A DNA stretch of 64,000 bases, from positions 11,656,001 through 11,720,000 of the forward strand of contig CATNEN010000039.1 of NCBI GenBank assembly GCA_950097015.1, written 5' to 3'. This stretch comes from Macrostomum hystrix. Lineage: Eukaryota; Animalia; Platyhelminthes. Both the position numbers and the translations under genes were made by a program. The stretch's first letter is position 1; each line of letters starts with the position of its first letter. Shown one piece after another: positions 1 through 42,184 of this stretch. The notes below the pieces were generated by a model. It did no database searches. It saw only the letters and a list, made by a program, of their open reading frames with translations, and had not been told where the DNA came from.

Positions 1-128
1 CACGTTGTGGCGATTTAGCAATTAACCATATTTTATTTCACAGCACAGACTAAAGGAGATTTGATAATTCAGTCAGCTTACTTCAAAAATAGGGCCAAAC
101 CGAACCTACGTCACAAATCCACTGCCAG

Positions 129-281
129 ATGTACCACAGCCCAGCTACATCAGACGAGGCAGCATTGTCAACCGTTTACTCAAACAACGGCTCAAAAGCT
201 CTGCTTCATCACCATGGCGACCTGCACCAAGAGCTGCCGGCACCGCTACCGCCACTGTACCCATTGATGAGTCTTGAACAT

Positions 282-347
<66 letters not shown>

Positions 348-1519
348 ATGCAGCATGAATTGCTATTAGTGAATCCTACTGACCAGCATACAAACTATTT
401 TTGCCAAGAATCAGCTGCTTCTGTAGAACAATACTATTATCAGCAGCAGCAGCAGCAGCTTCACCAAGGATTTTATCCCGAACCAGCTTATGATCCACAC
501 GGGTTATCTTACAATGCGGCCCTCCTGTGTCCAGAGTCTTATCAGCCGCATCATCAGCATCAGCAGCATCAGCATCAGCAGCAGCAGCAGAGATTATCAT
601 ACTTTGATCCAACCACAATGGGATTTCCGGTAAATTGATTAATTACAAATTAGTTATCGATCTACCAGGCGCTTTCCAATGCCCTAATGAATGCTTAATG
701 AAATATTTTACGCGAAACTCATTAAAGGATCCCATTTGCGGCTCGAGAACAGCTGATCTGTATGCCCACCAGCAGAACTATTATCAGCAGGTAAGTTTGA
801 CGAGATGCACTTTAGGGATTCACCAATTTTTGGGCATGGTTCGGCAACCTTATATGGCTATTTTGCCAATGTGATAATCCAAAATATAACTGCTGGCTGC
901 ATTGTCAGTGGAGAGATGAGATATGTGAGAGATGAGACAGGGGGAGAGATGAGACAGGGGGAGAGATGAGACAGGGGAGAGATGAGAAATGGAAGAAATG
1001 AAAAACAGGAGAGATGAGACACAGGAGAGATGAGACACAGGAGAGATGAGACACGGGAGAGATGAGACACGGGAGAGATGAGACACAGGAGAGATGAGAC
1101 ACGGGAGAGATGAGACACGGGAGAGATGAGACACAGGAGAGATGAGACACGGGAGAGATGAGATACGGGAGAGATGAGACACTGGAGACAGAATACATGG
1201 GAGAGATGAGACACGGGAGAGAGAAGACACGGGAGAGATGAGACACGGGAGAGATGAGACACTGGAGACAGAATACATGGGAGAGATGAGACACGGGAGA
1301 GATAAGACACGGGAGAGATGAGACACGGGAGAGATGAGACACTGGAGAGAGAAGACACGGGAGAGATGAGGCAGGGGAGAGTAAAGGCGTTGTTTTGCGA
1401 GATATGGGGTCCATTCATGCACTGCAAAGATGTCCTTTCTACGAAAGCTTTAAAGTACGACCTTCTGATCACCCATCAATCACAAGCAGCAGCATCTGCA
1501 ATCGTCGACTCCACTGCAA

Positions 1520-1583
<64 letters not shown>

Positions 1584-2490
1584 CACCACCGCCAGTGACG
1601 TCTCCAATACATCAGCCAGCAAAGCGTAATCATCAGAATCAGCAGCAGCAGCAGCCCTCCGTTTCGAAGCCAGTGGCCAAATCGGCTGCTAAATCGAAGC
1701 AAGCCAATGCCCAGTCCCAGCAGCCACCTGCTTCGGCGTCAACCGGGCTTCAGCATCAGCAGCAGCTGCCATCAACATCGTCAGCAAAGGCGTCGGAATC
1801 AGCCAGCCGGCAGATTTCATCGCCGACATCGGCTTCAAAGCTTCGGGGCAGCAACGGCTACGAGCGCAGGCGGCGCCTGCTAGGCGACATCAGCAGAGCT
1901 TCGGCTGAGCTGACTGCGGCCGCGTCGCTGATTCAAGTCGCTGGCAACCCAAGCAGGAAGGCCAACAGTCGGGGCAGCAAGGCCGCTTCCAGCAGCAGAG
2001 AGGACGACAATTTCAGCGACAGCAACGACGACGAAGACTTCGCCAGCGATGATATCGACTTTCGAGAGGACAACGACGATGATGACGAAGATGACGCGAA
2101 CTTGACCCCGGAGGAGAAACTGCAACGGGAGAAGGCCAGGAGACACGCCAACAATGCGAGAGAGAGGTGAGCACTCATCATCAAACCATAATTAGAGAAA
2201 AAATACTATTCTTATTCCTATGTTCCAACTCCAAGATCCCAATCTAGGAGCAGATTGATCAGATCCGAAGAATGTTTATCCCAAATATGGGAATACAGAC
2301 CAATTTACTAATAATTGGTCTCGTCAAATTTATGACCTTGAAATCCCAGAAATCTTATTCGAAACCGTGCATTATTTAAATAAAGCAAACGCGACAATAT
2401 TTAGGCTCCGAGTTAAAGACATCAACGATGCGTTCAAAGAGCTAGGAGAAATGGTTGACCTGTACAGCGGCTGCATTGAAATTAACAATT

Positions 2491-2527
<37 letters not shown>

Positions 2528-5500
2528 ACTGACAAAGCTTGCTGTACTGCAGCAGGCAGTCAATATAATTTCTTTCCTCGAGCAGCAAGTTCTAGGTTCG
2601 ATGAGTCTTTGCTCTGATGCCAGGCAATTTGTTGCAACAATCTATATTTTCCGATTGCATTGTTTTGCTGTGAATAATCAATTAGTTATTAGGTGAAAAT
2701 TAGCTCATCGTAAAGGGAGGATAATTTTGATCCATTGGTAGCTATCTCCTGCTTTTAGAAGTCTGTTAAAATTGTTTTTGACAGTCTATCAGGTTATCAG
2801 TTTAACAGTCTGTAATACTTTGATCAGAGAGTTTCCACTACCGTGTGCAGTGAAGGTGTCGGTTAACAAATCAATGACCAATAGTTTGCCTATTCAATGA
2901 AAAACTGCACGCAGGATTCGAGTCCGCGACATCAACGGCGCATTCAAAGAGCTCGGCCGCATGACGATGATGCACTTGAAGTGTGAGAAGCCTCAAACAA
3001 AACTGTGCGTACTTCAACAGGCTGTCACTGTGATAACGGCCCTCGAGCAGCAAGTCAGAGGTCTTTGTAGCCATTTGTATGAGCTAACTAATTTTTCATT
3101 TTTCGCTGATTAGTTCTGCGGTGTCGCGATGGTTGTTTTCTAAAACTTCTAATTGAAATGTTTGAATGAGTGAAATCTAATTTCATATTCGCATCAGCCA
3201 ATCACAGTTGCCCTGTAAAATATAACAGAGCCCACAATGTACACACGACATCAGCCAATCGCAGTTGCCCTGTAAAATATAACAGAGCCCACAATGTACA
3301 CACGACATCAGCCAATCGCAGTTGCCCTGTAAAATATAACAGAGCCCACAATGTACACACGACATCAGCCAATCGCGGTTGCCCTGTAAAATATAACAGA
3401 GCCCACAATGTACACACGACATCAGCCAATCGCAGTTGACCTGTAGATAGAACAGAACCAGAATGTACACACGACATAAGCCAATCACAGTTGCCATGTA
3501 AATAGCTCGTAGAACAGATCCATAATGTACACACGGGATCAGCCAGTCACAATTGCCCTGTAAAAAAGAACAAGCCACAATGTACACACGACATCAGCCA
3601 ATCACAGTTGCCCCATGAAACAACAGAGCCTGAATGTACACTTCACATCAGCCAATCATAGTAGCCCAGGCACAGAAGAGCTGAACCAATCACCAGTCAT
3701 CTTCAACGGAGTAAGATAAGCAAAGCGCAGTAATTAATTCATTCTTGCTTTTCATTTTGGTTGCAGAGCGCAACTTGAACCCTAAGGCGGCTTGTCTGAA
3801 GCGACGCGAGGAGGAGAAATCGAGCGGGGGCAGCGATCACGAGTTGCCGACAATTCGTGCTTCTTCAAGCGGTTTAGCTGGCCAAACAGCCTGCGACAGT
3901 AAGGTAAATAGGGGAGACAAAACATTATCTGTCATCCGCGCATTCTCACTGCTTATCCTATATTTAATTCCCAGCTAATGCTCGCACTAATCGCATGTGT
4001 TATTTAACATCGAAACAAGATTAACAGCATCTAGCGCTAACATTATTTCAGGACTAACTGAAGTCTGAATGCCGAAGATCTAAAAACTCCGATTCTAAAC
4101 TCGTTAATCCCGAACATACGAAAATTTAATTGCAATTTTCTCAATCTAAACCCTCATTCCTTGCTATAAACTCAAGTCCTTAATCCCAAATATAAATCCG
4201 AATACATCCCGATTCTAAAACTAAATGCTTAATCCCTACTTCGAATCTCAATTCCTAATCCCGATTCTAAATTAGAATCCCAAAATCCGTAGAATCCACT
4301 AATTAATCCTGATATTTATCCCAAATCCTTAATCAATTTTATAAATCCTTAATGTCTTTTCCGGCTAGAAATTTCAATTCTTAATCCTTTTTTGTCAATT
4401 CCGATTTCAAACACGATTTCACGATTTCAAATCAAAAGTCCCCTAAATTCAGATCCTCAGTTCAAATACTTTATGTTGATTTTATGTTCCGATTCGTCGA
4501 TGTTTTTCGTACTAAAATTGTCATTATACTTCATAGTAAGTTTATCATTTTAATTAAACATTTTTTTTCATTTTGAGTTGCTACTGAAGTGATCAACGAG
4601 TTGAAGAGACAAAAACAAACAAAAAGTGCTGAGTTTGGTAAAACATATTTTACCTAAGAGCAAAACAAAATTTATATCATTCCTTTCAGTTCTCATCTCA
4701 GATAAATTTGCGGTGACACCAAAGAAAACAATTTTCAATAGCAGTTTCTGATAATTATTTTTGCATTTTCAACGGATTTAGTTCAGATCGGTGGCCGGTT
4801 CTGCCTTGTGCTCGTTGATTCCTAGAAATTTTGTTTTAGTAAACCACCAGTTGTTTTAATGGATTGGGTTGTTTTGGTACACATTTCCTACAACTCAGAT
4901 TATTGTCACTCTAACGCTCAGATCTTTGTCACCCAAGAACTCAGATCTTTGTCTCTTTACAACGCAGATCTTTGTCACTCTACAACTCAGATATTTGTCA
5001 CTGTACAACTCAGATCTTTGTCACTCTACAACTCAGATCTTTGTCACTTTACAAGCTAGATCTTTGTCACTCTTCAACTCAGATATTTGTCACTCTATGA
5101 CTCAGATCATTGTCACATTACAAGTCAGATCTTTGTCAATCAAAATCTGATTACTTTTGTCCAAACTTAGCACGGGTACATGTGGTATGCAGAAACAGTT
5201 TTTACCCCGGAGTTAAATTGAAAGTTTGTTAAAATGCGTGAAAGCAATTCAATGTGATCGTTTGATACTCGGTCGAGTTTTGATAAAGATTTGAAGAAAA
5301 AAATTATACAACTATTATTTATATATTTGTTTGAAAAATTGAAAAAAATCATACGTTTTATTCTAGCCTAGCTAGCTGGTCCAGAGGTACAAATGCCCGG
5401 CGCTTCCAAAGATTGTGTACAGCTTTTCCAGTCTGTGGACTGGGAAGGCCGCCATACTCTACCCCAGCTAGTGGCTGATTCTGGTACCAGTTTTACAGCT

Positions 5501-5830
5501 GGTTGAATAGATCTAGGAAATTATGTGTCTTTCTCAAGGACGCGAGTAGCTTTTATTAGACTGAGAGCTTCCGAACTTTGAGTCGAGTATGCATAAAAGT
5601 TTGTGAAAAATCACATTTCAGACTATCCACTGACTGCGGCTCCGCAGCTGGCACTCCCTAGCCAACCAGGGGCCAATTTTTATTGTCCATCCGAACCGCA
5701 CCACCTGGTACCATTGCCGCCACAGCAGCAACAACAGCAGCAGCAGCAACAGCCCAATTTTCAAGACAACTGCGGTAACACAATGCCTCACCAATACCTA
5801 ATGTACTATGCTTCTAGCGATCAGTTGATT

Positions 5831-5907
<77 letters not shown>

Positions 5908-6106
5908 AGACTCAAATAACTTATCTTCAAGCGATCGAATCGATGCCACAATCTCTGCTGCCATAGGCGAGCCCTACAATTGTTCCGCACATCAACGCCC
6001 TGACATTCCCGAAGATTCAGCTATGAGTTTTAGCGCTGACGAGTTCCTGCTGCCGCATCCGCCATCATCCACAAGCCAATCCAGACCTAGAGTGAGTACA
6101 CCCTAG
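129..6106 (+). CDS. Class I bHLH E-protein (daughterless / TCF3-TCF4-TCF12 family), spliced, polyQ-rich
   Basis: Diagnostic E-protein sequence [13 protein letters not shown]-[I/L]RV[R/K]DINxAFKELG...TKLxVLQQAV...[23 protein letters not shown]. Phase-consistent GT-AG exons: 129-629, 728-790, ~1487/1490-2166, [2405-2595 or 2915-3060], 3767-3898, 5622-6106. The 5' exons and start codon are less certain than the bHLH core. Confidence 0.9.
910..1380. repeat. Purine-rich minisatellite, ~16-bp unit GAGAGATGAGACACGG (intronic)
   Basis: Direct tandem repetition; same family as 61600-62800 in the opposite orientation. Confidence 0.95.
2405..2595 (+). CDS. Alternative HLH exon A (divergent, polyQ-expanded loop)
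   Basis: ttag|G CTC CGA GTT AAA GAC ... GTT CTA G|gttcga; encodes [17 protein letters not shown]...(Q)n [23 protein letters not shown]; 191 nt, phase 2 to phase 1. Confidence 0.75.
2915..3060 (+). CDS. Alternative HLH exon B (canonical type); absent from the ORF track
   Basis: gcag|G ATT CGA GTC CGC GAC ... GTC AGA G|gtcttt; encodes [48 protein letters not shown]; 146 nt, phase 2 to phase 1. Confidence 0.9.
3190..3690. repeat. 60-bp minisatellite (~8 copies, decaying at the 3' end)
   Basis: Unit catcagccaatcgcagttgccctgtaaaatataacagagcccacaatgtacacacga. Confidence 0.95.
4888..5140. repeat. 28-bp minisatellite
   Basis: Unit acaactcagatctttgtcactct(..) repeated about 9 times. Confidence 0.9.
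5390..5590 (-). mobile_element. Degenerate SINE copy related to the element at 39181-39477
   Basis: Minus strand reads gtccttgagaaagacac...ccagctgtaaaactggtaccag...tagctgggg, matching the core of the 39.2 kb SINE. Confidence 0.55.
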
Positions 6107-6691
6107 CAACAGCATAGCAACCGAGTTTCCTTATCGTTATCTGGACCTCCAAAGAAATAAAAGAAAAAAATGTTGCGATATTGTTGCACATGGTAGGTAA
6201 ACGGACAGCAGATTGTCCTACAGCTGATCGAGTATTCATTTTATAAATTATAAATGCAAAAAGTTACAAGCCGTGCTACAGTAAATTAACTGCTGCTTAA
6301 ATAATTTACATTGAGATAAAAAGGTAAAATTGTTTCGTTCTTTAGTTTCGTACAAGAACTTTTGTTTTTAATCGTCTTTTGAGTTAACTGGATAATTATC
6401 TTTCATGAGTTTTTGTCTCGTATATCTCGTACAAAGTCACATTTATGCACTGTCTATTGTGTGTTGACGTGAGAATGAAAACTTTTTGTTAAATCAAATA
6501 CAATTTGACTAATGCCAACAATATATATGATGCACGCATGAGAATTGCTACTGTAACTTCATTGCTGCAAGCTGTGCATTCGTCAAAGCGAAGCCGTTAA
6601 CCTAATTTGTTAGGTTCTGCCTTAATTAGCCTTTTGACTTCTGACTCATATACATAGTTACGAGTATGAACTCTGGCTGCTCACATAATAC

Positions 6692-6812
6692 TCAGCTGCT
6701 GACATTCTCTGATCCTTCAGCTGCTGACATTCTCTGATCCTTCAGCTGCTGACATTCTCTGATCCTTCAGCTGCTGACATTCTCTGATCCTTCAGCTGCT
6801 GACATTCTCTGA
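6692..6812. repeat. 23-bp minisatellite x5
   Basis: Unit tcagctgctgacattctctgatcct. Confidence 0.95.
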
Positions 6813-7059
6813 TGCTTTAGCGGACTTCACTGACACGTGTAACACCCGAGTACATTGCCAGACCGCCAGACCCCCATCCAGCTACAGGAACTTACTCCTG
6901 TACCTCCCTAATTTAAGCGGACTTACTGCCTTCAGGCGCACGTCTAAAGGCAGCCGCTGTGCCAAAAGGTCGAGAAAAAGCACAATGAAACGGACTTCCC
7001 CGACATTCTGACAATTTTGACGGATGAAAGCTCTCTTCGAAAGCTTTTGCCGATCTTCG

Positions 7060-7860
7060 ATCCCTTCCTTTAAGCTTTGGCGGACTTTCGAAACCTCCCT
7101 TATGCTTTGGTGGAGTGTCCGACACCTCCCTAATGCTTTGGCAGATTGTCGATACCTTCATTAAGCTTTGGTGGATTGTCGATACCTTCATTAAGCTTTG
7201 GTGGGATTGTCGATACCTTCATTAAGCTTTGGTGGATTGTCGATACCTTCATTAAGCTTTGGTGGATTGTCGATACCTTCCTTAAGCTTTGGTGGATTGT
7301 CGATACCTTCCTTAAGCTTTGGTGGATTGTCGATACCTCCCATAAGGTTTGGTGGATTGTCGATACCTCCCATAAGCTCTGGTGGATTGTCGATACCTCC
7401 CTTAAGCTTTGGTGGATTGTCGATACCTTTCTTAAGCTCTGGTGGATTGTCGATACCTTTCTTAAGCTTTGGTGGATTGTCGATACCTTTCTTAAGCTCT
7501 GGTGGATTGTCGATACCTTTCTTAAGCTCTGGTGGATTGTCGATACCTCCCATAAGCTCTGGTGGATTGTCGATACCTTTCTTAAGCTCTGGTGGATTGT
7601 CGATACCTTTCTTAAGCTTTGGTGGATTGTCGATACCTTTCTTAAGCTCTGGTGGATTGTCGATACCTTTCTTAAGCTTTGGTGGATTGTCGATACCTTT
7701 CTTAAGCTCTGGTGGATTGTCGATACCTCCCATAAGGTTTGGTGGATTGTCGATACCTCCCATAAGCTCTGGTGGATTGTCGATACCTTCATTAAGCTTT
7801 GGTGGAGTGTCCGATACCTTTATTAAGCTTTGGTGGAGTGTCCGATACCTCCCTTAAGTT
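7060..7860. repeat. 30-bp minisatellite (~26 copies)
   Basis: Unit ggtggattgtcgataccttYcttaagcttt. Confidence 0.97.
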
Positions 7861-8467
7861 TTGGAAATACTCAAAATCTTCACAACTGTTAATGTGTTAC
7901 ATATCAATACTTTGCTTAATTTAGCTTAAAATAGGCTTATCAATTATAAACGAAAAATGTTTGACATTGTTCGTAAATTTTATTTTTAGAAAATAGCACA
8001 CTGAACGAGTCATGCGACTGAAAGGTTTAATTTATTTGTATTGCCATGTTTTTTTAGCGAAAGTATCAATTATTGCACTGCTATTTGGAAAGATTAGTTG
8101 GGATAAAAATTACAACGACAAATTGGCTAGAAAATGCTTGAAAAACAGTTTATAGATTCCTAGAAAGGAAAATAAAGACAAGGCAGTTAAAGACAACAGT
8201 TGAAGAAAACAGCTGCAATACAGTAAATAGCACCAGAATTAATAAAATACACGCAGAGAGAAATGAGTCGAGAATAGCACAGCGTGCGAGGATGCTAAAT
8301 GAAGAGATGTGCTAGACCGGAATAAATAAGTAAATAAAATAAAGCAAATGCAGCACTTATTCAACTATAATTACTCGTATAAAGTAAAGCCTTCAATCCC
8401 ACGTGCTGGAGTAATCAGATATTTTAATTAAGAGAAGAGGTGATTGGATAACCAGTCGATCGGACGC

Positions 8468-9589
8468 TTAGAAGTCGGCGTCCATCTTGAACTCGCGATT
8501 GTTCTCGCCCATCACGCGGCTCATCACGCCGGCCTTCTGATATTCGCCGACTCGCTTCTCGAAGAAGTTGGTCTTGCCCTCCAGGCTGATGTTCTCCATG
8601 AAGTCGAACGGATTCTCCGAGTTGAAGGCCTTCGGGCAGTCGAGCTCGGTCAGCAGCCGGTCGGCCACGAACTCGATGTAGCGACACATCGAGGCGCAGT
8701 TCATGCCGATGAGAGACACCGGCAGGGCTTCGGTCAAGAAGCTCTGTTCGATGGCCACGGCGTCCCTGATGATCTCGGTGATGCGTTCCTGACTTGGCGG
8801 CTGACGCAGGTGGCGGAACATCAGGCAGGCGAAGTCGGTGTGGAGGCCCTCGTCGCGGCTAATGAGCTCGTTGCTGAATGTCAGACCGGGCATGAGGCCG
8901 CGCTTCTTCAGCCAGAAGATGGCGGCGAAGCTGCCGCTGAAGAAGATACCTTCAACGGCTGCGAAGGCGACAATTCGCTCGCCGAAGGTGGCTCGCCGAT
9001 GTGAGATCCAGTTGAGCGCCCAGTCGGCCTTCTGGCGCACCGGCGGCAGGGTCTCGATGGCGTTGAACAGCAGGTCGCGCTTGGCCGGATCGCGAACGTA
9101 GCTATCGATGAGCAGCGAGTACATCTCCGAGTGGATGTTCTCAATCATGATCTGGAAGCCGTAGAAACAGCGGGCCTCAGGAATCTGCACCTCCTGGGCG
9201 AAGCGTTCGACAAGGTTCTCGTTGACTATGCCATCGGAGGCGGCAAAGAAGGCCAGAACGTAGGACACGAAGTGGCGCTCGTTGTCCGTGAGCCGCTTCC
9301 AGTCCTCCAGATCCTTGCTGAGGTCAACCTCCTCGACTGTCCAGAAGCTGGCCACGGCCTTCTTGTACATCTGCCAGATGTCGTGGTACTGAATCGGCAT
9401 GATCACAAATCGGTGGGGATTTTCGCGCAGCAGAGGCTCCTCCAGCTCCTCTGGATGCTGCTGACGCTCCTTCTTGACTGGACTGTCGCCAGCAGATGAA
9501 GACAGCTTCTTCATGGGGCTTAGCAGCGGCTTTGAGGCATCGGTCGGCTGCTGGGGTGGTGGAATATTTTCGATCTCGACTGGGTCCAT
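8468..9589 (-). CDS. RRM2: Ribonucleoside-diphosphate reductase small subunit (R2), intronless
   Basis: 373 aa ORF with [47 protein letters not shown] (iron ligands, radical Tyr), [30 protein letters not shown]-terminal DADF. Confidence 0.99.
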
Positions 9590-9714
9590 TGTTGACTATT
9601 TTGCTATTTAGTTTAACACGTAAACTGAAATGGAGATGCAATATATTGTTAAGTAAAATTACGTTTAGTTTAACACTACTTTATGAAATAATATGCTACC
9701 GTGTGAGCAGGATA

Positions 9715-10610
9715 GGCGAGGGTGTGGGAGGGGTAGGAGCTGAGTGTGGGAGGGGTAGGAGCTGAGTGTGAGAGGGGTAGGAGAGGGGTAGGAGCTGAGT
9801 GTGAGAGGGGTAGGAGAGGGGTAGGAGCTGAGTGTGAGAGGGGTAGGAGAGGGATAGGAGCTGAGTGTGAGAGGGGTAGGAGAGGGGTAGGAGCTGAGTG
9901 TGAGAGGGGTAGGAGCTGAAGGTGAGAGGTGGGGTAGGAGAGGGGTAGGGGCTGAGTGTGAGAGGGGTAGGAGAGGGGTAGGAGCTGAGTGTGAGAGGGG
10001 TAGGAGCTGAGGGTGAGAGGTGGGGTAGGAGAGGGGTAGGAGCTGAGGGTGAGTGGGGTAGGAGCTGAGGGTGAGTGGGGTAGGAGCTGAGGGAGAGGGG
10101 TAGGAGCTGAGAGTGAGAGGTGGGGTAGGAGAGGGTTAGGAGCTGAGGGTGAGTGGGGTAGGAGCTGAGGATGAGAGGGGTAGGAGCTGAGAGTGAGAGG
10201 TGGGGTAGGAGAGGGGTAGGAGCTGAGGGTGAGTGGGGTAGTAGCTGAGGGTGAGAGGGGTAGGAGCTGAGTGTGAGAGGGGTAGGAGCTGAGTGTGAGA
10301 GGGGTAGGAGAGGGGTAGGAGCTGAGTGTGAGAGGGGTAGGAGCTGAGTGTGAGAGGGGTAGGAGAGGGGTAGGAGCTGAGTGTGAGAGGGGTAGGAGAG
10401 GGGTAGGAGCTGAAGGTGAGAGGTGGGGTAGGAGAGGGGTAGGGGCTGAGGGTGAGAGCAGTAGGAGAGGGGTAGGAGCTGAGTGTGAGAGGGGTAGGAG
10501 CTGAGAGTGAGAGGTGGGGTAGGAGAGGGGTAGGGGCTGAGGGTGAGAGGGGGGTAGGAGAGGGTATGAGAAGGGCTGAGAGAGGGTCGAGAGGGGATGA
10601 GAGAGGGTAA
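9715..10610. repeat. G/purine-rich complex satellite (GAGAGGGGTAG / GAGCTGAGTGT modules)
   Basis: Visible modular tandem repetition with G4 runs, immediately upstream of RRM2. Confidence 0.95.
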
Positions 10611-11051
10611 TTTAAACAGTTTTTCATCGGACATCATTTCAAGTGTTTTCTACTTTAAGTTTTTTAAAATAACAATACACTTGAAATAAATAAATCCAAA
10701 ATTAAATTCTGTTTAAATCCTACTTAAAACCCTATTAACAGTAGTATGTGTAGCGATAGAATTATTGCGCAAAAAAGTAAAAAAAAATTCATTCAGATTA
10801 TAGACTTTAAAGAAGGCTAGATTGCATAGTATATATAGTCATGCAAGGCAATATTTACAGTTAATCGCAAGCACTAATCGATCGATCCAATCCTGACAGT
10901 TATTACAGAAAATGCTTTAAAAAATTCAACACGCCAATAGTTATTAAATAAAATCATTGCAGTGAATTGTACTGGTATTACTAGTGTATAATAACCAGAG
11001 AAATAAAATTTCATGCGCAATCAACAGATTGTTGAGTATTTATCTCGGTTC

Positions 11052-14000
11052 TCACAGCAGTCTACCGCGGCAGTCTTTAGCGCGGCAGAAGCAGCGCAGA
11101 GTTTTGCCAGGCACACTGCCAACCTGATAATTGTAGTCCCAGCAGAGCTCATCGCCGGCGCGCACCCTGGCGCAGGTGAAGAATGCAATCTCAGGGAAGC
11201 GAGGATCGTGCGTATTGACGAACACATTCTGCACAATTACATTCGGAGCGCAGGAATGATTCAAATAGCGGCCTAGATTGCCGATCCGCTTGGCGTCCAT
11301 GATGTAGGGCTGGGCCTCGCCTAGGAATGCCCGAAGGCAGGCAGCCGGGCCGGCAGCGTCCAGTATGTCGTCGGCCGGATTGTCGTCCGGTACGAACGCT
11401 TCGATGGCTTCTTCGACGACGTCGTCGTCTTGTTCGTCGCCTAGCTGACTGAAAATGATGAGCGTTTGGAAAGCTGTGACGTTTAAGACGCGATCAAAGA
11501 GACTTTAAATTGAAATCGGTTAGCGTTAATTGAATACTTTAACTCGAGTGCTGCACAATTTATTTAACCACCACCTGGAACACATAAGGATAAAGATATC
11601 AAATACATTAGGAGGGAAGGGCTGGCTGGGGAAGAGATGGGAGGGGAAGGGGTGAGAGGGGAATGGGTGAGAGGGGAATGGGTGAGAGGGGAATGGGTGA
11701 GAGGGGAATGCATGGGTGAGAGGGGAATGCGTGGGTGAGAGGGGAATGGGTGAGAGGGGAATGCATGGGTGAGAGGGGAAGGGGTGAGGATTGAGGAAGG
11801 GGTGAGGATTGAGGAAGGGGTGAGAGGGGAATGCATGGGTGAGAGGGGAAGGGGTGAGGATTGAGGAAGGGGTGAGAGGGGAAGGGGTGAGAGGGGAAGG
11901 GGTGAGAAGGGAAGGGTGAGAGGGGAAGGGGTGACCCTGTAAAAAATTCGGCTGCTTCTTCGGCGGGTTTTTTGTGCAAAATAGGAGTGGAATCTACAAA
12001 AATCCCCCCTATCTCGCAAGAGTTAAAGAAACCACCCAGGAAGCAGCCGATGTAACCGTAAATTGTGCGGAAACCGCCGAAGAATCACCCGAACCAGTGG
12101 CCCATTGGACAACCAGAGAATTCTTTATGGGCGATTCCTCGGCGGTTTCTGAGCATGGAATCTTCCGAACTGGAGGATTCTTTGGGTGATTCCATTTCGC
12201 CACCAAGAAGCACCGAGAAAACGCCCAGTTGGGTAGATTCTAAGCATGGAACCATCCGATTGGTATGTTTCCAGCATTCGGCTGTTTCTTTTTCTGGAAA
12301 CACCGCAGATTCCAACTGGAATCACCCAAAGAAACATCCCTATTTTTTAGCGGGGAGAGGGGAAATGCTTAGATGGGCCAACGGGTGAGAGGGGAAGAGG
12401 TTGGAGGGGAACGAATAAAAAGAGAAGGGCTGAGAGGGCAAGGGAAAAGAGAAGGGGTGACTGGAAGAGATAAGACTGGAAGATATAAGACTAGAAGAGA
12501 TTAGAGATAAGAGGTTTGAGAAGTAAATAGACATAGGGTAAGAGACTAGAGCGGGATTGTGAAGTAAGGGAGGGACTGCAAGGCTTAAAAAGAAGAAAAT
12601 GAAGAAGGGAAATAGTCAAACCGGTAATTATGTGGCGCTAACCTTGCCGACGGATTACCGGCGCCATCGATCCGTCTGCTGCTGTCCTTGGGCACAGTGC
12701 TGGCGTCAGTCTCAGCCGATTCTCCCTGCAGCTCGTCGGTAGTTAATCTAATCCGTTTGGACTTGGTCGCAGCCGATTTCTTACCGACATTGTTGCCAGG
12801 GCGTTTTCTACGCCTGTCAGAGCCTGTGCAGTAATCCTCGTCATTCTCATCATCGTTATCTACGTCATCATCATCGTCGTCTTGCCCGTCGTTGGCCAGG
12901 TATTCGTCATCGTCCGGAGGCGAGACAGAAGTTGCTTCTTCTTGTTCAGCATCGTTGTCTTCGCCGTTATCGCTGCTCGGCCTCTCGCTGTTCCTGTTGT
13001 TATCCTCGTTGTCTTCCGCAGAAGATTGCGATTCAGTCTGGTCTTTCTGCTGCCGCCTGTGCTGCTGCTGCTGCTGAAGCGGCTCCAGAACACCGGCTTC
13101 GTAGCCAACTTTCTCCTGTTCCATGACTTCCAGGTGATCCAAATCAGCCTGATATTCGTCGCCAAACTGATCGCAGTACTGGACAGCCAGCTCCTCACTG
13201 TAGAGCTCGCCGGCGTACACGCAAACGAAGGCGCCTTTTGGTAGATCGTGCAGAGGGCGCAGACCCCAGCCCTTGCGGCTTGTTTTGAATATCTGCAGTC
13301 GGGCATTGAGGCCGCGTTGTACTAGACGATTGCGGCACTGCCAGTCCTGACAGGCGCAGCCGGAGTTGCACTCGTAGACGCCACCGATGAGGGCGCGAAC
13401 CAGGCGGCCGTTTTCGTAGGCCGGGCGACTGTCGGTCCGGCCTGGGGTTTTTTGATTCGGAGGGGGTAGCCCGTGTGTAGCCAAAATGAAACAGCAATGT
13501 AGCTAAACTATTATTGATCTTAATTGAATGAGAGCTCTCGGAACTGGCACATAGGAATGAGCCTACACTGAACAGGGTGGAGGTTGGAACGATCCACTGA
13601 ATGGATTGGGGTGGAGGTTGGGGCGATCCACTGAATGGATTGGGGTGGAGGTTGGAACGATCCACTGAATGGATTGGGGTGGAGGTTGGAACGATCCACT
13701 GAATGGATTGGGGTGGAGGTTGGGGCGATCCACTGAATGGATTGGGGTGGAAGTTGGGGCGATCCACTGAATGGATTGGGGTGAAGGTTGGGGCGATCAA
13801 CTGAATGGATTGGGGTGGAGGTTGAGGCGATCCACTGAATGGATTGGGGTGAAGGTTGAGGCGATCCACTGAATGGATTGGGGTGAAGGTTGAGGCGATC
13901 AACTGAATGGATTGGGGTGAAGGTTGAGGCGATCCACTGAATGGATTGGGGTGGAGGTTGAGGCGATCAACTGAATGGATTGGGGTGGAGGTTGAGGCGA

Positions 14001-17000
14001 TCCACTGAATGGATTGGGGTGGAGGCTGGGACGATCAACTGAATGGATTGGGGTGGAGGTTGGGGCGATCCACTGAATGAATTGGGGTGGAGGTTGGAAC
14101 GATCAACTGAATGGATTGGGGTGGAGGTTGGGGCAATCCACTGAATGGATTGGGGTGGAGGTTGGGACGATCCACTGAATAGATTGGGGTGGAGGTTGGG
14201 GCGTTCCAGTGAATAGATTGGGGTGGAGGTTGGGGCGTTCCAGTGAATAGATTGGGGTGGAGGTTGGGGCGTTCCAGTGAATAGATTGGGGTGGAGGTTG
14301 GGGCTTTCCAGTGAATGGATTGGGGTGGAGGTTAAAACGATCAACTGAATGGATTGGGGTGGTCCTCGAGCAAGCTCAGGAAATGGTACAATAGGCAGGT
14401 CACCATCCTTAAATGGATAGATTGAAAATTATGATGTTAGCAAATGAAATTTTAATTACCAGTGACAATAGCGGATGCCTCAGCAGTCAGTCTCAGACAA
14501 GCGCACTTGGTTCGATCTCTACAACCGTCTGTACAATCGCAGCAGACTAGAAAGCCTCTGTCCGATTCGTTGGTGCACACATTCAGAATTGGCATTCGCT
14601 GCGAAGTGTAATCGATATAAGGCGGCTCCTCAGCGTCCAGACAGTTGACAGCGGGCACTGTGATGCGCTCCTTGCCATAGCTGAGGTCGGCCAGCTGACG
14701 CCGAACACCCGTGGCGCAGAACTCGGTGGCCACGCGAACTAGCGGGTCGAAACAAAAGTTCATCGGATGCAGCCGGGAGCCGGTGTGGCCCAGGTAGCGA
14801 TCCAAGTCTGCTGGATTGCGCAATCGCCTGCCGCACGGAGTCGCGTACTCGATCTAGATTGCGCAATCAAAAATATCGCTTTTGGACATTTATCATGTCA
14901 GACAATTGTATGTACCTTTTTTCAAATTATTTTTTGCAAATTTATCTTGTGGGATATCCGACGGCTGTGTACAGCTGTTCATGCACTGAGTCCTTCAGTG
15001 TGTCAGCTGTTCATTTCTTCAGTGTGACACTAAAGTACAAGTACACTTAATGACAAGACTTAAAAGTACACGCATGAGAAAAAAAGAACTGACCAGTTCT
15101 CTGCGGCGAACTCGCCCGGAGCCACCAAGCCGGACTATAAACCGATGCCAGCCAAGCAGGAGAGGCACGTCCAACGGATTCCTGTCAACGGACAAAGCCA
15201 ATTCCAGGCGTTCCTGCTCGGACTTGTCCGAATCGGCCTCGTCCGAGATGCTGCCAACTAGAAGCAGACAATTGGGCTCGCAGACTTGGCCATGCTGATG
15301 CGGAAACGGTCGGAGCTGTCGCAGGGAAGAGCTGTCAATCGAAGCTACCATAACACCGGCGCGCGCTTCCTCGTAGCAGGCGTCTTCCTCGGAAGCATCT
15401 TCGCCAACGCTGGCAGACGACTGCTGCCTGTGAGTCAATAAGGTCGGAGCAGAGGACGACGAAGACAAGGTTTGCAACAGCTGCTGCTGCTGCGGCTGAT
15501 GCTTGTGCTGGCGTCGGACAGCGCCGCCAATGCTAGATTTTCGAGCGAACGCTTGACGAATCGCCGGCTGCTGATCTCCCGAAGGGGTCGCCGACGCCGC
15601 CGCCGCAGCAGCAGCGGCATTTGAGGCAGCAACTGCAGCTGCCTTCTCTCTAATCAGCATAGCTTTAAACAGATCCTCAAGGCGTGTACTGCCACGGTAT
15701 AACCATTCGCGACAGCCACTGCGAGTAGGAAAGCGAACCTGAACCAGGCTAGCGTCAACCTGCTCGACCACTGCGGTCAGCCACTCGCCTGTCAATGTCC
15801 GGTTGCGGTTAGATTCTTAGAAATTCTTAGTAACGGGATTTCAAACCGACTGAAATCAGTAGCTGGTCGATACAGTCGACTAGAAACGCTGAGACCTCTC
15901 ATCATAATCTTTCCCATGGTACTCGCGGGAATAAATGGGATAATATGGGGATTTCATCTTAACTCAAGGCTCTAGAACGGAGCCTGAAGTCAATTCTCGA
16001 ACCGAAACTCACTTAAATCAGGATTGACTGGATTCATTCGCGGAGATTAGGCTAGGAGGGTTACTAATAATAATGGCAGGAGGCCTGCGGGCAGTGGCAC
16101 ATCATTTGGTGACACTAGACCCGCAGCCAGCGAGGAGGCAATTCTGCCCATTTCGCTGACTCCTGAGCACACGCGCACACAGATACTGTACGCAGGCACA
16201 CACTCACACAGGTGTGTACATCTGCCCTGACTTTCTAATTGTCAGGCAGTGTACATTTCATTGTGCCTTGGGGGTTTGCCCTCAAGGGCGTAAATTGCAC
16301 GACAAGCCTCCAAGCCTCGCAAATAAATTTGGCCTCGCCGTGGAATCGAACTTAGGGACCGTGGTGCGAGTGGCAAACGCGATAACCGCTCTGCCACCGG
16401 GGGTTAGTCGGGTTAGATGCGGCCCTCGAAGCTACCAAATCAGACCACTCGCCCCTTGCAACACCTATAATATCCTGTCTTATTTATCATGTGTCTCAAC
16501 TCTCCCCTTTTTCCATATTCCTACAGTTAATTCGGCCCGCTTCCGAACAAGTTTGCCGACCCCTGCTTTAACCTAGCTAGTCCCATTACAGGCATTAATA
16601 GCCACAATACACCAGCAGCTCACCCCGCAGTTCAACTCGAATAGTAAGTCCAGGCCGCAGTCTGAGCATAGTCCTATTGGGATATTTGTCCAGATAGGCT
16701 CGCACGAATTCCTGAGAATCCTGGGCAACCTCGCGCCAATTATGCGGCGTCTGATGCAGCACTCGTCTGACATCGTTTGGCGGCGAATACTGGGCGAATC
16801 CGTCGTCGAAGAACAATAGATAACGCCTAGAGTTCCTCTCGCCAGGCGGCTCGGCAACAATTGCCGAATAATAAAATATTAAGCCGCGATCGTCAGTGTA
16901 GGAAGACACCACCCTGGCTCCCACCGGGTACTGTTCCAGTCTCTGTTCGGCGGTCTCAAACAATGCAACCTGACTAGGCCGCAAGTTCTTAGTAATCTTT

Positions 17001-29618: not shown

Positions 29619-32600
29619 ATGAACGGCGGCGGCAGCAGGCGGCAAATGAATGGCGGCAGTCCATTGTCCAATAGTCGCGCATTTCCATCGCCATTCTCTT
29701 TGAACTTCAGCGCCTCCAGCGGTCAGGCTGTGGCGCCAAGTCCTAGCGGATTTGCCTTCTCTTTGAATGCGCCTTCGACATCTGCCTCCGCTGCCGCCGC
29801 CGCCGCAGCAGCAGCCGCCGCTGCACCAGACGAACCGCCATTGCGATTGGACGAAGTGCCCACCGCTGTGCGACTATTGCGTCAGGCGTTGCGTCAGCCG
29901 CATCGGAAACTGCTGGAAGATGCCGAGGTTGTACGGAAACTGAATAGATTATCTCACTGCCAGCCAGTTATTACGGTCAACACATTAGAGGATATTGCTA
30001 GACTGAATGCTCAGGTCTGTGGCTTGCTATGACTAGATTTTTTTAATTTGTCCTTTTAAATATTTTTTTAACTTCCATTTTTTTAATTTTCTAAGGAAAA
30101 GTGGCATATTTTCAGACATTTTCATTTTTTGTCCTTGATTTTTCTATTGATTGGCATCTTTTTTAAGCCTTAGGAAAGTCTAGGATATTTTTCCAGAATA
30201 CACGAATCTTTCTTGAAGATTGTGGGATATTTTCCAGCAATATTAGCTGCGGCGGGTCTTAGAGATGTAAGATTTTTAGTTCTTCCCATATTTATTAGAG
30301 CCACTAGAGTGTGTTCTACTTGTATGGTTCTTCCCAATTATTAATTGCATTGTAGAAAATGTTAATATTAACATCCTGTCATCAGGTTTCATCATATTGA
30401 ACTGAACTCTCGCCATTGTCAGGACGCGCGCGATCGCATATTTCTTTGCTTGGCCCGCCAGCCTTTGATCAATTTCACCTACTGCAGCGAGTTTGTTCAG
30501 TTGATGCGCACGGAATTTGAAAATATGATTATCCAGGCTGATAATAGCGCACCCATCACTACTAAGCTAGAGGTTGAGCACTTGCAAGCCATGTGCCTGT
30601 CCTGGAGACTAATGTGTGAGCACAGTTACGAATGCGTCATCTACAATCACGAAAGAATCCGCTCTCTGCAGCCAATGCTCATTGACAAGCTTCGCCCGCC
30701 GCGAGACAATCCGGACGCTGATATTGAACCGCTGCGCGCTTTCATCATACTGGACGGCGAAATGAAGCGAGTGCGCTGCGAATGGGACGAAGCCCAACCT
30801 GCGCTAAAGGCATGGCGTTTGGCTAACAAGCCGCCAGCTGACATTCCATGGCCGACTGATCCGCCTCGCAATGCCGAAGAACTGGCACTCGGCTCCGCTC
30901 CTGGACCGTTTGTTAGTTGCGAACGCTGCAGTAAAACTGTTTGCACCTGCCAGAGCTGCCGCATGACTCATTATTTCACCTGCGGAGTGCTGGCGCCCAG
31001 GCCCGCACCAGACGGTTCCGGCCGATTAGAATTCGACGACGATGAAGACGGCTTCGAGGAGAGCTTCTTGTCGTTGGGCCGTCAGTCCTCGCCCCCCAGA
31101 CCAACTCATCTCCATAATCAGCATCACCAGCATCAGACAGCTCAATCTACTCAGACAACATCAACATCGACATCGACTCAAGCCTCGGCTGCTCAGCCCG
31201 CCCAGTCAGCTGGAGCTGCAGCGGCTCCCGTGTCGGCCAATTACCACGCCAATAGGGACCGATTGCGACAGAAATTAAAAGAGAAAAGAAAGCAGAAAAC
31301 TGCAGCGGCCGCTTCCCCTAGCAGCAATGCTACTAACAGTAGAGATAGCTGCGTTGAACCACCCGATCAAGCATCAGAGCAGTCTAGGGCTAAGAAAAAG
31401 ACAAAAGCTTCAGCTGCATCCGATATAGACGAATTGGTGCGATTCATTGAGGGCCAAAACTCCACGGGTTCGACTAACGGCGGCGTTAATAACAATGCAA
31501 ATAGCGGCAGTCAGGCTAGTAACAAAACTGGACAGAAACAAAGACAACCTCCCACTACCACTGCCAAGACTAAAAAGCCTGTCAGCAAGTCTAAACAGCA
31601 GCAGCAGCTGGCGGTGTCTGCTAATTCTGGCACTGCTGTAAACAGTCGCGGTAGCAGTTATACCAGAAGCAACAATATTGACAGCGGTGAGTTATTTTAA
31701 TATTCATGCTATTACTGGTACATAGTCCTGCATTTTTGATTGTGATGTTTGATCCTCTAAACAAACCCATTTAGAGCTAAAGCGTTAACGAATTAATGTT
31801 AGTGTTTTTGATCAGGGACACAAGTTTTTCACCCTGCTACTTAGGTTAGATAAAAATTGATTTTGACTACTTTGAGTAGAAATGCGCACATTTTATTGAA
31901 AAAAGATATATTTATTTATTTAGTGTTTCTACCGCGCGGCGCCAGTCCCAGCTCCGCGTTCGACAACCGGCTCGACGAATATAATGACGATGATAACGAC
32001 GATTGCGCAGATTGGACCGATGGCGACGATCTAGATGATGACGAGTTGGATCCAGTTGTTGAACAGTTTAAAAGGTTTGAAACTGATCTTTATCTACATT
32101 AATAAGTTTTATTTTTTCAAATCACGGATTAAACTTGAGTGATTCTCAGCACCTTAAATTAATATCAAGGATTTCTGCGAATTGGGAATCAATGTAGAGA
32201 ATTAAGATTGTCTGTTATCTGATTTAATTGGGATTTTTATATTGAGCTGTAAATATTTCTTTTTATCAGGAATGGGATTTTGGTATATTCGATAATCTTA
32301 AATGGGATTTGGGATTTTAGATAATCTGAAATAGGATTTGGGGATCTAAAATAATCTGAAATAGTATTTGGGGATCTAAAATAATATGAAATGGGATTTG
32401 GGGATCTAAAATAATCTGAAATAGTATTTGGGGATCTAAAATAATATGAAATGGGATTTGGGGATCTAAAATAATCTTAAATGGGATTTGGGGATCTAAA
32501 ATAATCTGAAATGGGATTTGGGGATCTTAAATATTCTGAAATGGGATTTGGGGATCTCAGATGATCTGAAATTGGATTTGGGGATCTCAGATGATCTGAA

Positions 32601-39477: not shown

Positions 39478-40492
39478 ATTGAACTAATATGGATTCGCCG
39501 TAGAGGTGTATACACAGCAATGCTAGTTCTGCTTGCCACCAGGGTCTTCGACAAGAATCGCTGAATGTCTTGACGATGCTGAAGTCGGAAGTCGGACGGT
39601 TTTGAAAGTTAGTGCTTCGTAAAGGGTGGAAAATTTTGGTGGACTTTCACGAAAACTCTGGTCATTCCGTTTGCGAGCTATCGTGAATTGTAGGCAGTGG
39701 GCATGAAATACCTTCGTGGTCTCTCCCGAGAGGGTACATAGCGTGGTGTTTCTACTCTATCAATGTATTTGAAGTTGCCGTACATGCTCGCACTACATAA
39801 TTTGATTGATTGATTGATTATTAATATAGATTGAATGCGACACTACTAAGTAGAACTCATGTCACAGCTTAAGCATCAAACACAGCATTATTCTATTCTA
39901 TCATTCGCATCTGGGCCAATTTTATCCAATCGAATCTGAGCGCACTCAAAACTACTTAATTTCGATCATTTCAACGCATAGAATTTCTGTCTCAACATCT
40001 GCACGCCTCGAGAACATTCGAAAATTCCGGCCATCAATTGAACTTGCCTTCACACTCACCTGCATGTTTTCATCCTGTTTTGCGAGGCAGAGAATTAGGG
40101 AGAGAGAGAGAAATAGGAAAAATTTTGAAAGGTTGAAGAGAGCGATAGAATTGCCAGGGGAATGAAAATCTGCTTCAGCTTTTCCGTGACACACAATATC
40201 TAGAAGGGAGCAATAGGATTGAGAAATATTTTAGTCGTCAGAGTCAGAGAGAAGCAGAAAAACACCTCGAGAATAGAAACTCGTACACCACCCCACTCCG
40301 CCCTCGGGTTGGCTTAGGCCGTTCTGCACACCGACCTACCCCCTCCCAGTCCTGCCCACTCCGCTTCAATACCTGCTGCAGCGATTGAGTGCGCTTCTAA
40401 TTTCTAAAACATCAGAGAATAAGAGCTCAAATTGCAGACCTACGCCCCACTCAAGGTCGAGCTATCGCTTTGAACCGTTGTCTAGGCAAGAG

Positions 40493-42184
40493 ATGTCTGC
40501 ACCGCCTCAACAGGCCGGCTTTGAAGTTCCCGAAGGTCTCCAGGAGCTGCTGCAGAATTTCACCGTGTCGGTGCTGCGCCGACGGCCGGCCAACCTGCTG
40601 CACTACGCGGCCGCATATTTTCGCCGCCTCGACCAGGCGGCTAACACCTGCGGCGCAGCCGTTGAGGCCGCCGCTGCGATGGCCGTCCTGAAGGTCCCCG
40701 CGAGAGAGGACTCCGGCGCCGAGACTGACGACGACAACGCTGCTATAGCCACAGCCGGCGCCGAAGCTGGCAAGGCTCCGTGGCGATCCAATCGCCGGGC
40801 TAGCGTCGCCGCGCCGTCATTTGACCCCGAGAAAAGCGAGGCCACGTATCAGCGCAAGATTGTGCCGAAGAGCGACGAGCAGAGGCGACGCCTTACCGAG
40901 ACGGTGAAGCACATCCTGCTGTTCCGCAGCCTGGATCGGCTCAGCCTTAGTCACGTGATTGACGCGATGCAGGAGCTCAGTGTGTCAGCCGGCGAGGTGA
41001 TCATCGAGCAGGACCAGGAAGGAGACAATTTTTACGTGATCGAGCGTGGAGTTTTCGAAGCCTACGTGACGGACTCGGCTAGCGGAGTGCGGCGCCTAGC
41101 CGTGACCTACAATCACAGCGGCTCGTTTGGCGAGCTGGCTCTCATGTACTACTGTCCCCGAGCCGCCACCGTTGTAGCCAAATCCGACGGCGTTCTCTGG
41201 TCGCTGGATTTGGACACCTTCCAGCAGAAGGTGCTAATGTCAGCTTTTAAGAATCGCAAAAAGTACGAAGCCTTCTTGGCCTCAGTGCCGCTACTGTCCG
41301 AGTTGACGCACTATGAGAGGCAGAATGTGGCTGACGCGCTAAAGGAGAGGGAGTACGACGATGGTGAGCCAGTGCTGTTTCAGATTTTTCATATTTTTTG
41401 ACATCTGACTCTGACTGAGAGTTCGCTAGTTCGACTCTTAGCCAAAGGGAAATAATCTAGCTCGCAAGTTCTTGGGTGCTTAGAGGCTGCAAAATGAGTA
41501 CTTAGCGTTAGCTGTGGTAGAAACTTTGGTGAATGTGCCGGCATGTTAAGTTCACTCTACTGACTGAATAAGTGTTCAAATACTTCAGAAATGACACAGT
41601 CTGTATATCAGATCTAACTCCGATAGGTATGATGAGTATTGGCTATTTTAGCAGGCCTGTATTGTTTTTTCAATAATCTTCGACGACACCAATGACGTGA
41701 CAGGAAAACAGTGTAGAACCGTTTTTCATTTCTTCATTTGATCAATTTGATCAACACGCTTTTGGATTGGAGTGGAAAAAACCTTCAGGGTTTGTTTTAA
41801 GCCTCGAAAAACCACCTTTCAGGCGAGCCGATTCTCTACCAGGGTGATCCCGGCAACGAAATGTTCTTCGTCGAGGACGGCAGCGTCAAGGTGATGCGCC
41901 GGCACTCGGACAACGGCCTTGAGACGCAGGTGAATCATCTGGAGAAGGGCGCTTACTTTGGCGAGTTGTCGCTAATCACGAAGCAGCCGCGAGCTGCCAG
42001 CTGCTACGCTGTGGGCCGGACTCGAGTCTGTGTGCTGCACGTGTCCGACTTTGAGCGCCTGCTTGGCCCCTGCCTGGAGGTGATGCGGCGCAACATCGAC
42101 AGCTACCGCAGCCAGCTCAGGGAGATCTTCGGTGACGCGACCAGCGCTGCGGCCGCGCCGCTTCGCATGGAGGCGTCTGTTTAA
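40493..42184 (+). CDS. PRKAR2: cAMP-dependent protein kinase type II regulatory subunit
   Basis: D/D domain (VPEGLQELLQNFTVSVLRRRP), RRAS substrate-type inhibitor site, two cNMP domains (FGELALMYYCPRAAT, FGELSLITKQPRAAS); exons 40493-41363 and 41823-42184. Confidence 0.96.

Follow-up and report, generated by a model that had tools for sequence, protein, structure and literature searches.

A gene of the flatworm Macrostomum hystrix, located within a stretch of 64,000 nucleotides of contig CATNEN010000039.1 (assembly GCA_950097015.1, positions 11,656,001 to 11,720,000 of the forward strand; termed the window, to which all coordinates refer), encodes an E-protein and splices either of two tandem exons, A or B, between the shared exons U and D. 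Both alternative exons code for the helix-loop-helix (HLH) module of the basic HLH (bHLH) domain. The pair likely goes back to an ancestor shared by flatworms, annelids, nemerteans and molluscs, lineages that split more than 500 million years ago, and would provide the same DNA-reading helix with different dimer surfaces and loops; the probability of this reading is estimated at about 0.8. The bHLH factors of nerve, muscle and blood share E-proteins as their dimer partner; the splice switch between E12 and E47, known from this family, is generally treated as a feature of vertebrates. Macrostomum is a regeneration model tractable by RNA interference.

Judged from its sequence, the gene codes for a Macrostomum E-protein, a class I bHLH factor of the daughterless/TCF3/4/12 family, as an earlier, sequence-only reading of the window had proposed for an invertebrate E-protein gene. 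The Pfam HLH model scored 37.9 bits for exon A and 26.7 bits for exon B (curated cut-off 20.7), exon B matches solved TCF4 and E2A structures (E about 1e-15 to 1e-17), and homologs are named TCF12, TCF4 or E2-alpha. The basic region NNARER and the motif following helix 2, [18 protein letters not shown], are likewise contained in E2A chain 8ubk_P. The peptide of exon B matches the corresponding module of the Macrostomum lignano UniRef model P0003 at 100 % identity and other M. lignano E-protein models at 81–95 %; exon A shares only 83 % identity with the first module of P0003. This combination of an identical B and a divergent A suggests that the window gene is a close paralog of P0003.

Exon U (Table 1) begins upstream of its contig-covered part, with a frame open from 1469, and ends with the basic region in phase 2, followed by the donor GTGAGC at 2167. 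The boundary falls within the codon of the final Arg of NNARER and leaves its first two letters in exon U; this Arg, the last of the ERxR motif, is completed by the alternative exons and is the same with A and B. Exons A and B are each flanked by AG and GT, start in phase 2 and end in phase 1, in agreement with the coordinates and phases of the sequence-only reading. They share 77 % of nucleotides over 44 nt and 70 % over 77 nt, and their peptides are 65 % identical over the helix columns; a self-search of the window yielded no third HLH copy. Exon D translates from 3767 as [19 protein letters not shown]. Upon scripted joining, the frames of U+A+D and U+B+D were open, while U+D stops at 3783 and U+A+B+D at 2962. 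Since double inclusion and double skipping both shift the frame, only the use of A or B maintains it, which bears out the one-or-the-other logic proposed earlier.

The exon pair is transcribed and spliced, and its use is probably mutually exclusive. Splice joints were read from assembled contigs of the four best-matching public runs, all from one study, aligned to positions 1400–4200; the runs (five found) are not on record as RNA, and contigs give no expression levels. All four joints named by the sequence-only reading were present with GT..AG ends: 2166>2915 (U to B) in three of the four runs, 3060>3767 (B to D) in all four, 2166>2405 (U to A) in run X2, and 2595>3767 (A to D) in run X5, the latter with a short side of 30 letters. 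Exon A transcripts, on the existence of which that reading had depended, are thus represented at both joints by one run each. The longest contig pieces at the four joints contained no mismatching letters, and neither did the exon U pieces (1595–2164). No joint from A to B (2595>2915) or from U to D (2166>3767) was detected in the four contig runs, contigs being prone to drop rare forms. A further run, X1, covers 1809–2129 without depth over the HLH exons (contigs, 80 % likeness, 1–12000). Exon D possesses two apparent donors 5 nt apart (GTAAGG after 3898, GTAAAT after 3903), and its contig pieces end at 3898 in run X2 and at 3903 in runs X3–X5. Joined to the candidate acceptor at 5622, the 3898 donor would lead to a long tail rich in polyglutamine (polyQ), the 3903 donor to a short end (...KTIH).

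The duplication reaches beyond this gene and lineage and is older than the sequence-only reading had supposed; it is common to flatworms, annelids and nemerteans, and A-type modules also occur in molluscs. The comparison comprised 216 distinct 48-residue modules from 440 proteins (leaving aside the window peptides, P0003 and modules of other length), 37 of which were classified as A-type by positions 15 and 27 of the module. Positions not used for this definition follow the same division: position 17 is V in 35 of the 37 A-type modules and C in 144 of the 179 others, position 25 is Q in all 37 and K in 162 of 179, and position 31 is M in 36 of 37. A-type modules accordingly differ from B-type ones by R15>Q/S/H/E, C17>V, K25>Q, Q27>L and M at 31, and have a small, uncharged loop. 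Exon A of the window carries V17 and, before and after the P, Q25 and L27. All five gene models found to hold both types (M. lignano P0003 and P0004, Echinococcus granulosus P0283, Cichlidogyrus casuarinus P0243, Lamellibrachia satsuma P0005) have A upstream of B. Among the eight named RefSeq isoforms of the nemertean Lineus longissimus, one (isoform X2) contains A and seven contain B, with identical flanks. Schistosoma rodhaini is represented by the models P0311 (A) and P0020 (B), which lie on contigs of equal length and presumably belong to the same gene. In raw reading-frame proteins from several invertebrates, the module starts after intron-like sequence and ends with QVR-G, which would fit the same two intron positions; double-HLH database proteins are probably mis-joined exons. 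Concerning molluscs, A was found in gastropods and bivalves and B in octopods, in an A-biased search that does not demonstrate absence. Oysters have two to three tandem A copies, and alternative isoforms of a mussel locus carry two variants of A. Bivalve E-protein genes P0123, P0125 and P0276/P0392 contain two or three A-type modules, a further expansion of the cluster. Two tandem B-like HLH modules in the unnamed ENA reading frames P0007, P0258 and P0274 suggest additional invertebrate duplications.

In a tree of 55 hand-picked named modules (48 columns, bootstrap not fully settled), 21 A-type rows including exon A of the window formed one clade (support 100/98). Exon A groups most closely with the A modules of other Macrostomum paralogs and exon B with their B modules; B-type rows do not form a single clade, and rotifer modules fall outside the A clade. 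The approximately unbiased (AU) test rejected forced clades of the two window exons (p-AU 0.042), of all Macrostomum rows (p-AU 0.035) and of all flatworm rows (p-AU 0.0007). The simplest reading is that a single duplication likely preceded the separation of flatworms, annelids, nemerteans and molluscs.

Several observations weigh against the reading of an ancient A/B switch. The RNA support stems from one study, from contigs only and from runs not recorded as RNA, and exon A is represented by one run per joint, with no contig spanning its polyQ tract; the missing joint from A to B is weak evidence, given the loss of rare forms from contigs. The tree comprises only 48 columns, and two of the three groupings it rejects are rejected by a narrow margin. 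A-type queries had supplied many of the A rows, and mollusc A and B were seen in different species, never within one gene. Exon A itself deviates at otherwise nearly invariant residues, with a Tyr at position 20 (in none of the 37 A-type modules) and a Leu at 48 (in none of the 216 modules), and has a Phe at 42 and a polyQ loop longer by 15 residues. That exon A might be a recent Macrostomum- or flatworm-specific copy of B, converged on A-like residues, could draw on an unresolved fork of the tree that places Macrostomum B modules close to the A clade and on the two borderline p-values (0.042, 0.035). This is already largely refuted and very improbable in view of the strongly supported A clade (100/98), the clear rejection of a flatworm-only clade (p 0.0007), the near saturation of synonymous sites between A and B (pS 0.64) and the A-then-B order in other phyla. 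The earlier description of the differences between A and B as largely synonymous was overstated: the 43 aligned helix codons comprise 16 identical, 12 synonymous and 15 non-synonymous ones (pS 0.64, pN 0.25). Since synonymous sites are near saturation, the dN/dS of about 0.2 says little on present selection, and a synonymous excess between copies this old hardly indicates, as had been argued, that both are under selection.

A more serious alternative, unlikely on balance but deserving attention, accepts the age of the switch and holds that this particular exon A is decaying or encodes a weak or inhibitory module, i.e., is spliced under relaxed selection while other paralogs keep a standard A. 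H20>Y, S42>F, R48>L and the polyQ-expanded loop, unseen in other A-type modules, would fit such a course, as would the contrast with the close paralog P0003 (module B 100 %, module A only 83 % identical), the presence of at least three other E-protein models in M. lignano, among them P0004 with a standard A, and the occurrence of A joints in fewer runs than B joints, a count by which contigs cannot measure levels. Opposed to decay are the intact frame, splice sites and hydrophobic core residues of exon A, its Pfam score of 37.9 bits and the recovery of both A joints, and polyQ tracts are common throughout the gene. Hardly credible, finally, is a never-spliced pseudo-exon or an assembly duplicate: the donor GTTCGA is weak and the pyrimidine tract poor, yet both A joints are present in contigs, a near-identical homeolog as contig source would share the same structure, and an assembly duplicate is at odds with only 65 % identity between A and B over the helix columns.

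Exclusive use of A and B would result from competition between two exons with weak splice sites, controlled by splicing factors. Sites of the constant exons are strong (donor GTGAGC of exon U; a long pyrimidine tract before 3767), and exons A and B have weak donors (GTTCGA and GTCTTT, respectively) and poor pyrimidine tracts, an arrangement that fits with regulated competition. The wrong products reach their first stop 233 and 118 nt ahead of the end of exon D, and an intron follows downstream; nonsense-mediated decay would therefore be a likely back-up removing double-inclusion and double-skip transcripts. Other known routes to mutually exclusive exons were considered. Steric hindrance of the tropomyosin type involves a branch point no more than about 50 nt away from the upstream donor and a short intron or AG-free zone, and was rejected on account of the A-B intron of 319 nt with 21 AG dinucleotides. 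The docking/selector type (Dscam, 14-3-3) employs conserved, competing intronic RNA duplexes. No strong inverted repeat was found near the exons, and among 15 region pairs one (about 2247–2272 with 3096–3120, -24.7 kcal/mol) paired below all 30 shuffles; this lone pair is unconvincing after 15 tests and would loop out both exons, leaving such a helix unsupported. Incompatibility with U12-type splicing is not indicated, as none of the three donors resembles the U12 consensus.

The HLH specifies dimer partners, as stated in passages of PMC3289634, and an altered homodimer strength or partner range would be the likely outcome of exchanging it. The A/B swap may change partner choice, the A-type residues being predicted to act on homodimer strength or on selection among class II bHLH and Id/Emc partners. 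A-type modules carry a Leu at position 27. In E47 homodimers, contacts by the His that closes helix 1 and by three glutamines would map to module positions 20, 18, 27 and 35; the passages of PMC3289634 did not confirm these residue-level contacts.

The closest known system is vertebrate TCF3/E2A, where E12 and E47 arise from the mutually exclusive exons 18a and 18b (passages of PMC6795145, PMC5852603). Both genes belong to the same family and use two tandem paralogous exons singly, with differing HLH and the same junction into the motif after helix 2. However, the vertebrate alternative exons include the basic region, which the double models P0006, P0008 and P0295 repeat, whereas the phase-2 intron after NNARE-R leaves it in the shared exon U of Macrostomum; the sequence-only reading had correctly recognized this difference from TCF3, a constant basic region followed by an exchanged HLH. 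Splicing of TCF3 is controlled by hnRNP H1/F and PTBP1 and by a conserved stretch of intron located over 500 nt away from both exons (passages of the same two articles), as opposed to an A-B intron of only 319 nt here. The Macrostomum switch works like E12/E47, is not shown to be its ortholog, and is shared across lophotrochozoan phyla.

Crustacean daughterless, seen here in database models only, resembles the Macrostomum gene in its shared basic region, two alternative HLH modules and same flanks. Oratosquilla RefSeq isoforms divide four to seven (of 11) between two HLH modules (P0272/P0414), and double-module models exist from Darwinula, Cyprideis and Hyalella (P0009, P0010, P0011; ostracod or amphipod). 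Neither crustacean module belongs to the spiralian A clade, though, and type 2 forms a clade of its own (100/98), which points to a separate duplication as the likely source of this pair. The insect-type HLH module constitutes a separate clade in the tree. In the butterfly Bicyclus anynana, a seasonal, validated either-or exon pair of daughterless lies next to the bHLH (passages of PMC9218548). The two reverse primers in its supplement translate to QANNARE and QDNNVR, which suggests that the butterfly exons alternate in the basic region and have a common HLH, a mirror image of the Macrostomum arrangement. Abalone isoforms differ just upstream of NNARER (proteins P0312–P0323, P0330), so that alternative splicing of the basic region may occur in several protostomes.

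Architecture and distribution make a separate origin of the spiralian, crustacean and vertebrate switches likely, and to this extent the independence from E12/E47 proposed earlier stands; the tree does not prove it. Its best topology separates spiralian A, crustacean type 2, E12 and E47, yet the AU test did not reject a grouping of A-type modules with E47 (p-AU 0.32) or with crustacean type 2 (p-AU 0.14). These unrejected groupings, together with the phase-1 junction before ERNLNP common to all systems, could be taken to indicate one duplication of bilaterian age behind all three pairs, followed by turnover and intron shifts, which would render the pair described here a homolog of E12/E47. Such a history is improbable considering that the best tree keeps the modules apart, that the basic region is repeated in vertebrate but not in protostome double models, and that the isoforms listed for a tick (10 of 10), for a scorpion cluster (5 of 5) and for a hemichordate (15 of 15, from a cluster of 18) hold only a single module.

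No description of a spiralian HLH-only switch was found in the full-text literature, with most subscription papers outside reach; RefSeq models already contain the isoforms implicitly. Bao et al. 2017 (PMC5381572), whose census of lophotrochozoan bHLH genes covers the same orthology family as the Macrostomum gene, counted the E12/E47 ortholog as one gene in most molluscs and annelids. The main text of that article contains no 'splic', 'isoform' or 'two bHLH'. A broader proposal, held tentatively and at somewhat less than even odds, is that either-or switches of the E-protein bHLH module arose at least three, perhaps four times (whole bHLH in vertebrates, HLH in lophotrochozoans, HLH in crustaceans, basic region in butterflies). 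The lophotrochozoan switch, older than the split of flatworms, annelids, nemerteans and molluscs, would then constitute an undescribed, cell-type-regulated reset of the proneural, myogenic or Id partners of the sole obligatory class I bHLH, e.g., between stem-cell and differentiating states. If true, the HLH-only switches of lophotrochozoans and crustaceans would represent repeated convergence on the same domain, and dimer specificity would be separated from DNA reading more cleanly than in E12/E47. In flatworms, annelids and bivalves, models and knockdowns of this gene frequently fuse or overlook isoforms.

Table 1. Features of the E-protein gene and of the remaining window
Feature	Position	Strand	Remarks
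Shared exon U	1595..2166	+	contig-covered part; low-complexity region, acidic stretch, basic region ...NNARE-R
Alternative exon A	2405..2595 (191 nt)	+	last basic Arg, helix 1, loop with polyQ insert, helix 2
A-B intron	2596..2914 (319 nt)	+	21 AG dinucleotides, without AG-free zone
Alternative exon B	2915..3060 (146 nt)	+	canonical E-protein HLH (GRM...KPQTKL); weak donor GTCTTT
Tandem repeat (minisatellite)	3192..3667	+	57-bp unit, 8.4 copies; inside B-D intron; no role shown
Common exon D	3767..3903	+	opens with [18 protein letters not shown]; preceded by strong pyrimidine tract
Likely last exon	5622..6161	+	acceptor predicted from sequence; AATAAA at 6156; contig cover 5917–6305
Minisatellite	910–1381		16-bp unit; in or after the gene
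Minisatellite	4888–5138		23-bp unit; in or after the gene
Minisatellite	7057–7864		30-bp unit; in or after the gene
Ribonucleotide reductase small subunit gene	8468–9595	-	intronless; Pfam E 2.6e-116
SETDB1-like histone methyltransferase pieces	about 10850–15816	-	Tudor_4 and Pre-SET matches
PKA regulatory-subunit-like ORF	40277–41401	+	Pfam scan
SAXO-like ORF	48686–49354	+	Pfam scan
DUF445 ORF	59818–60810	+	Pfam scan

Beyond the E-protein gene, the window harbours further genes and open reading frames (ORFs) listed in Table 1; an additional ORF (30372–31700, 442 aa) was without Pfam match. For the ribonucleotide reductase gene, contigs contain a related copy with 15–17 differences. The 16-bp repeat displayed very deep contig cover and is thus widespread in the runs.

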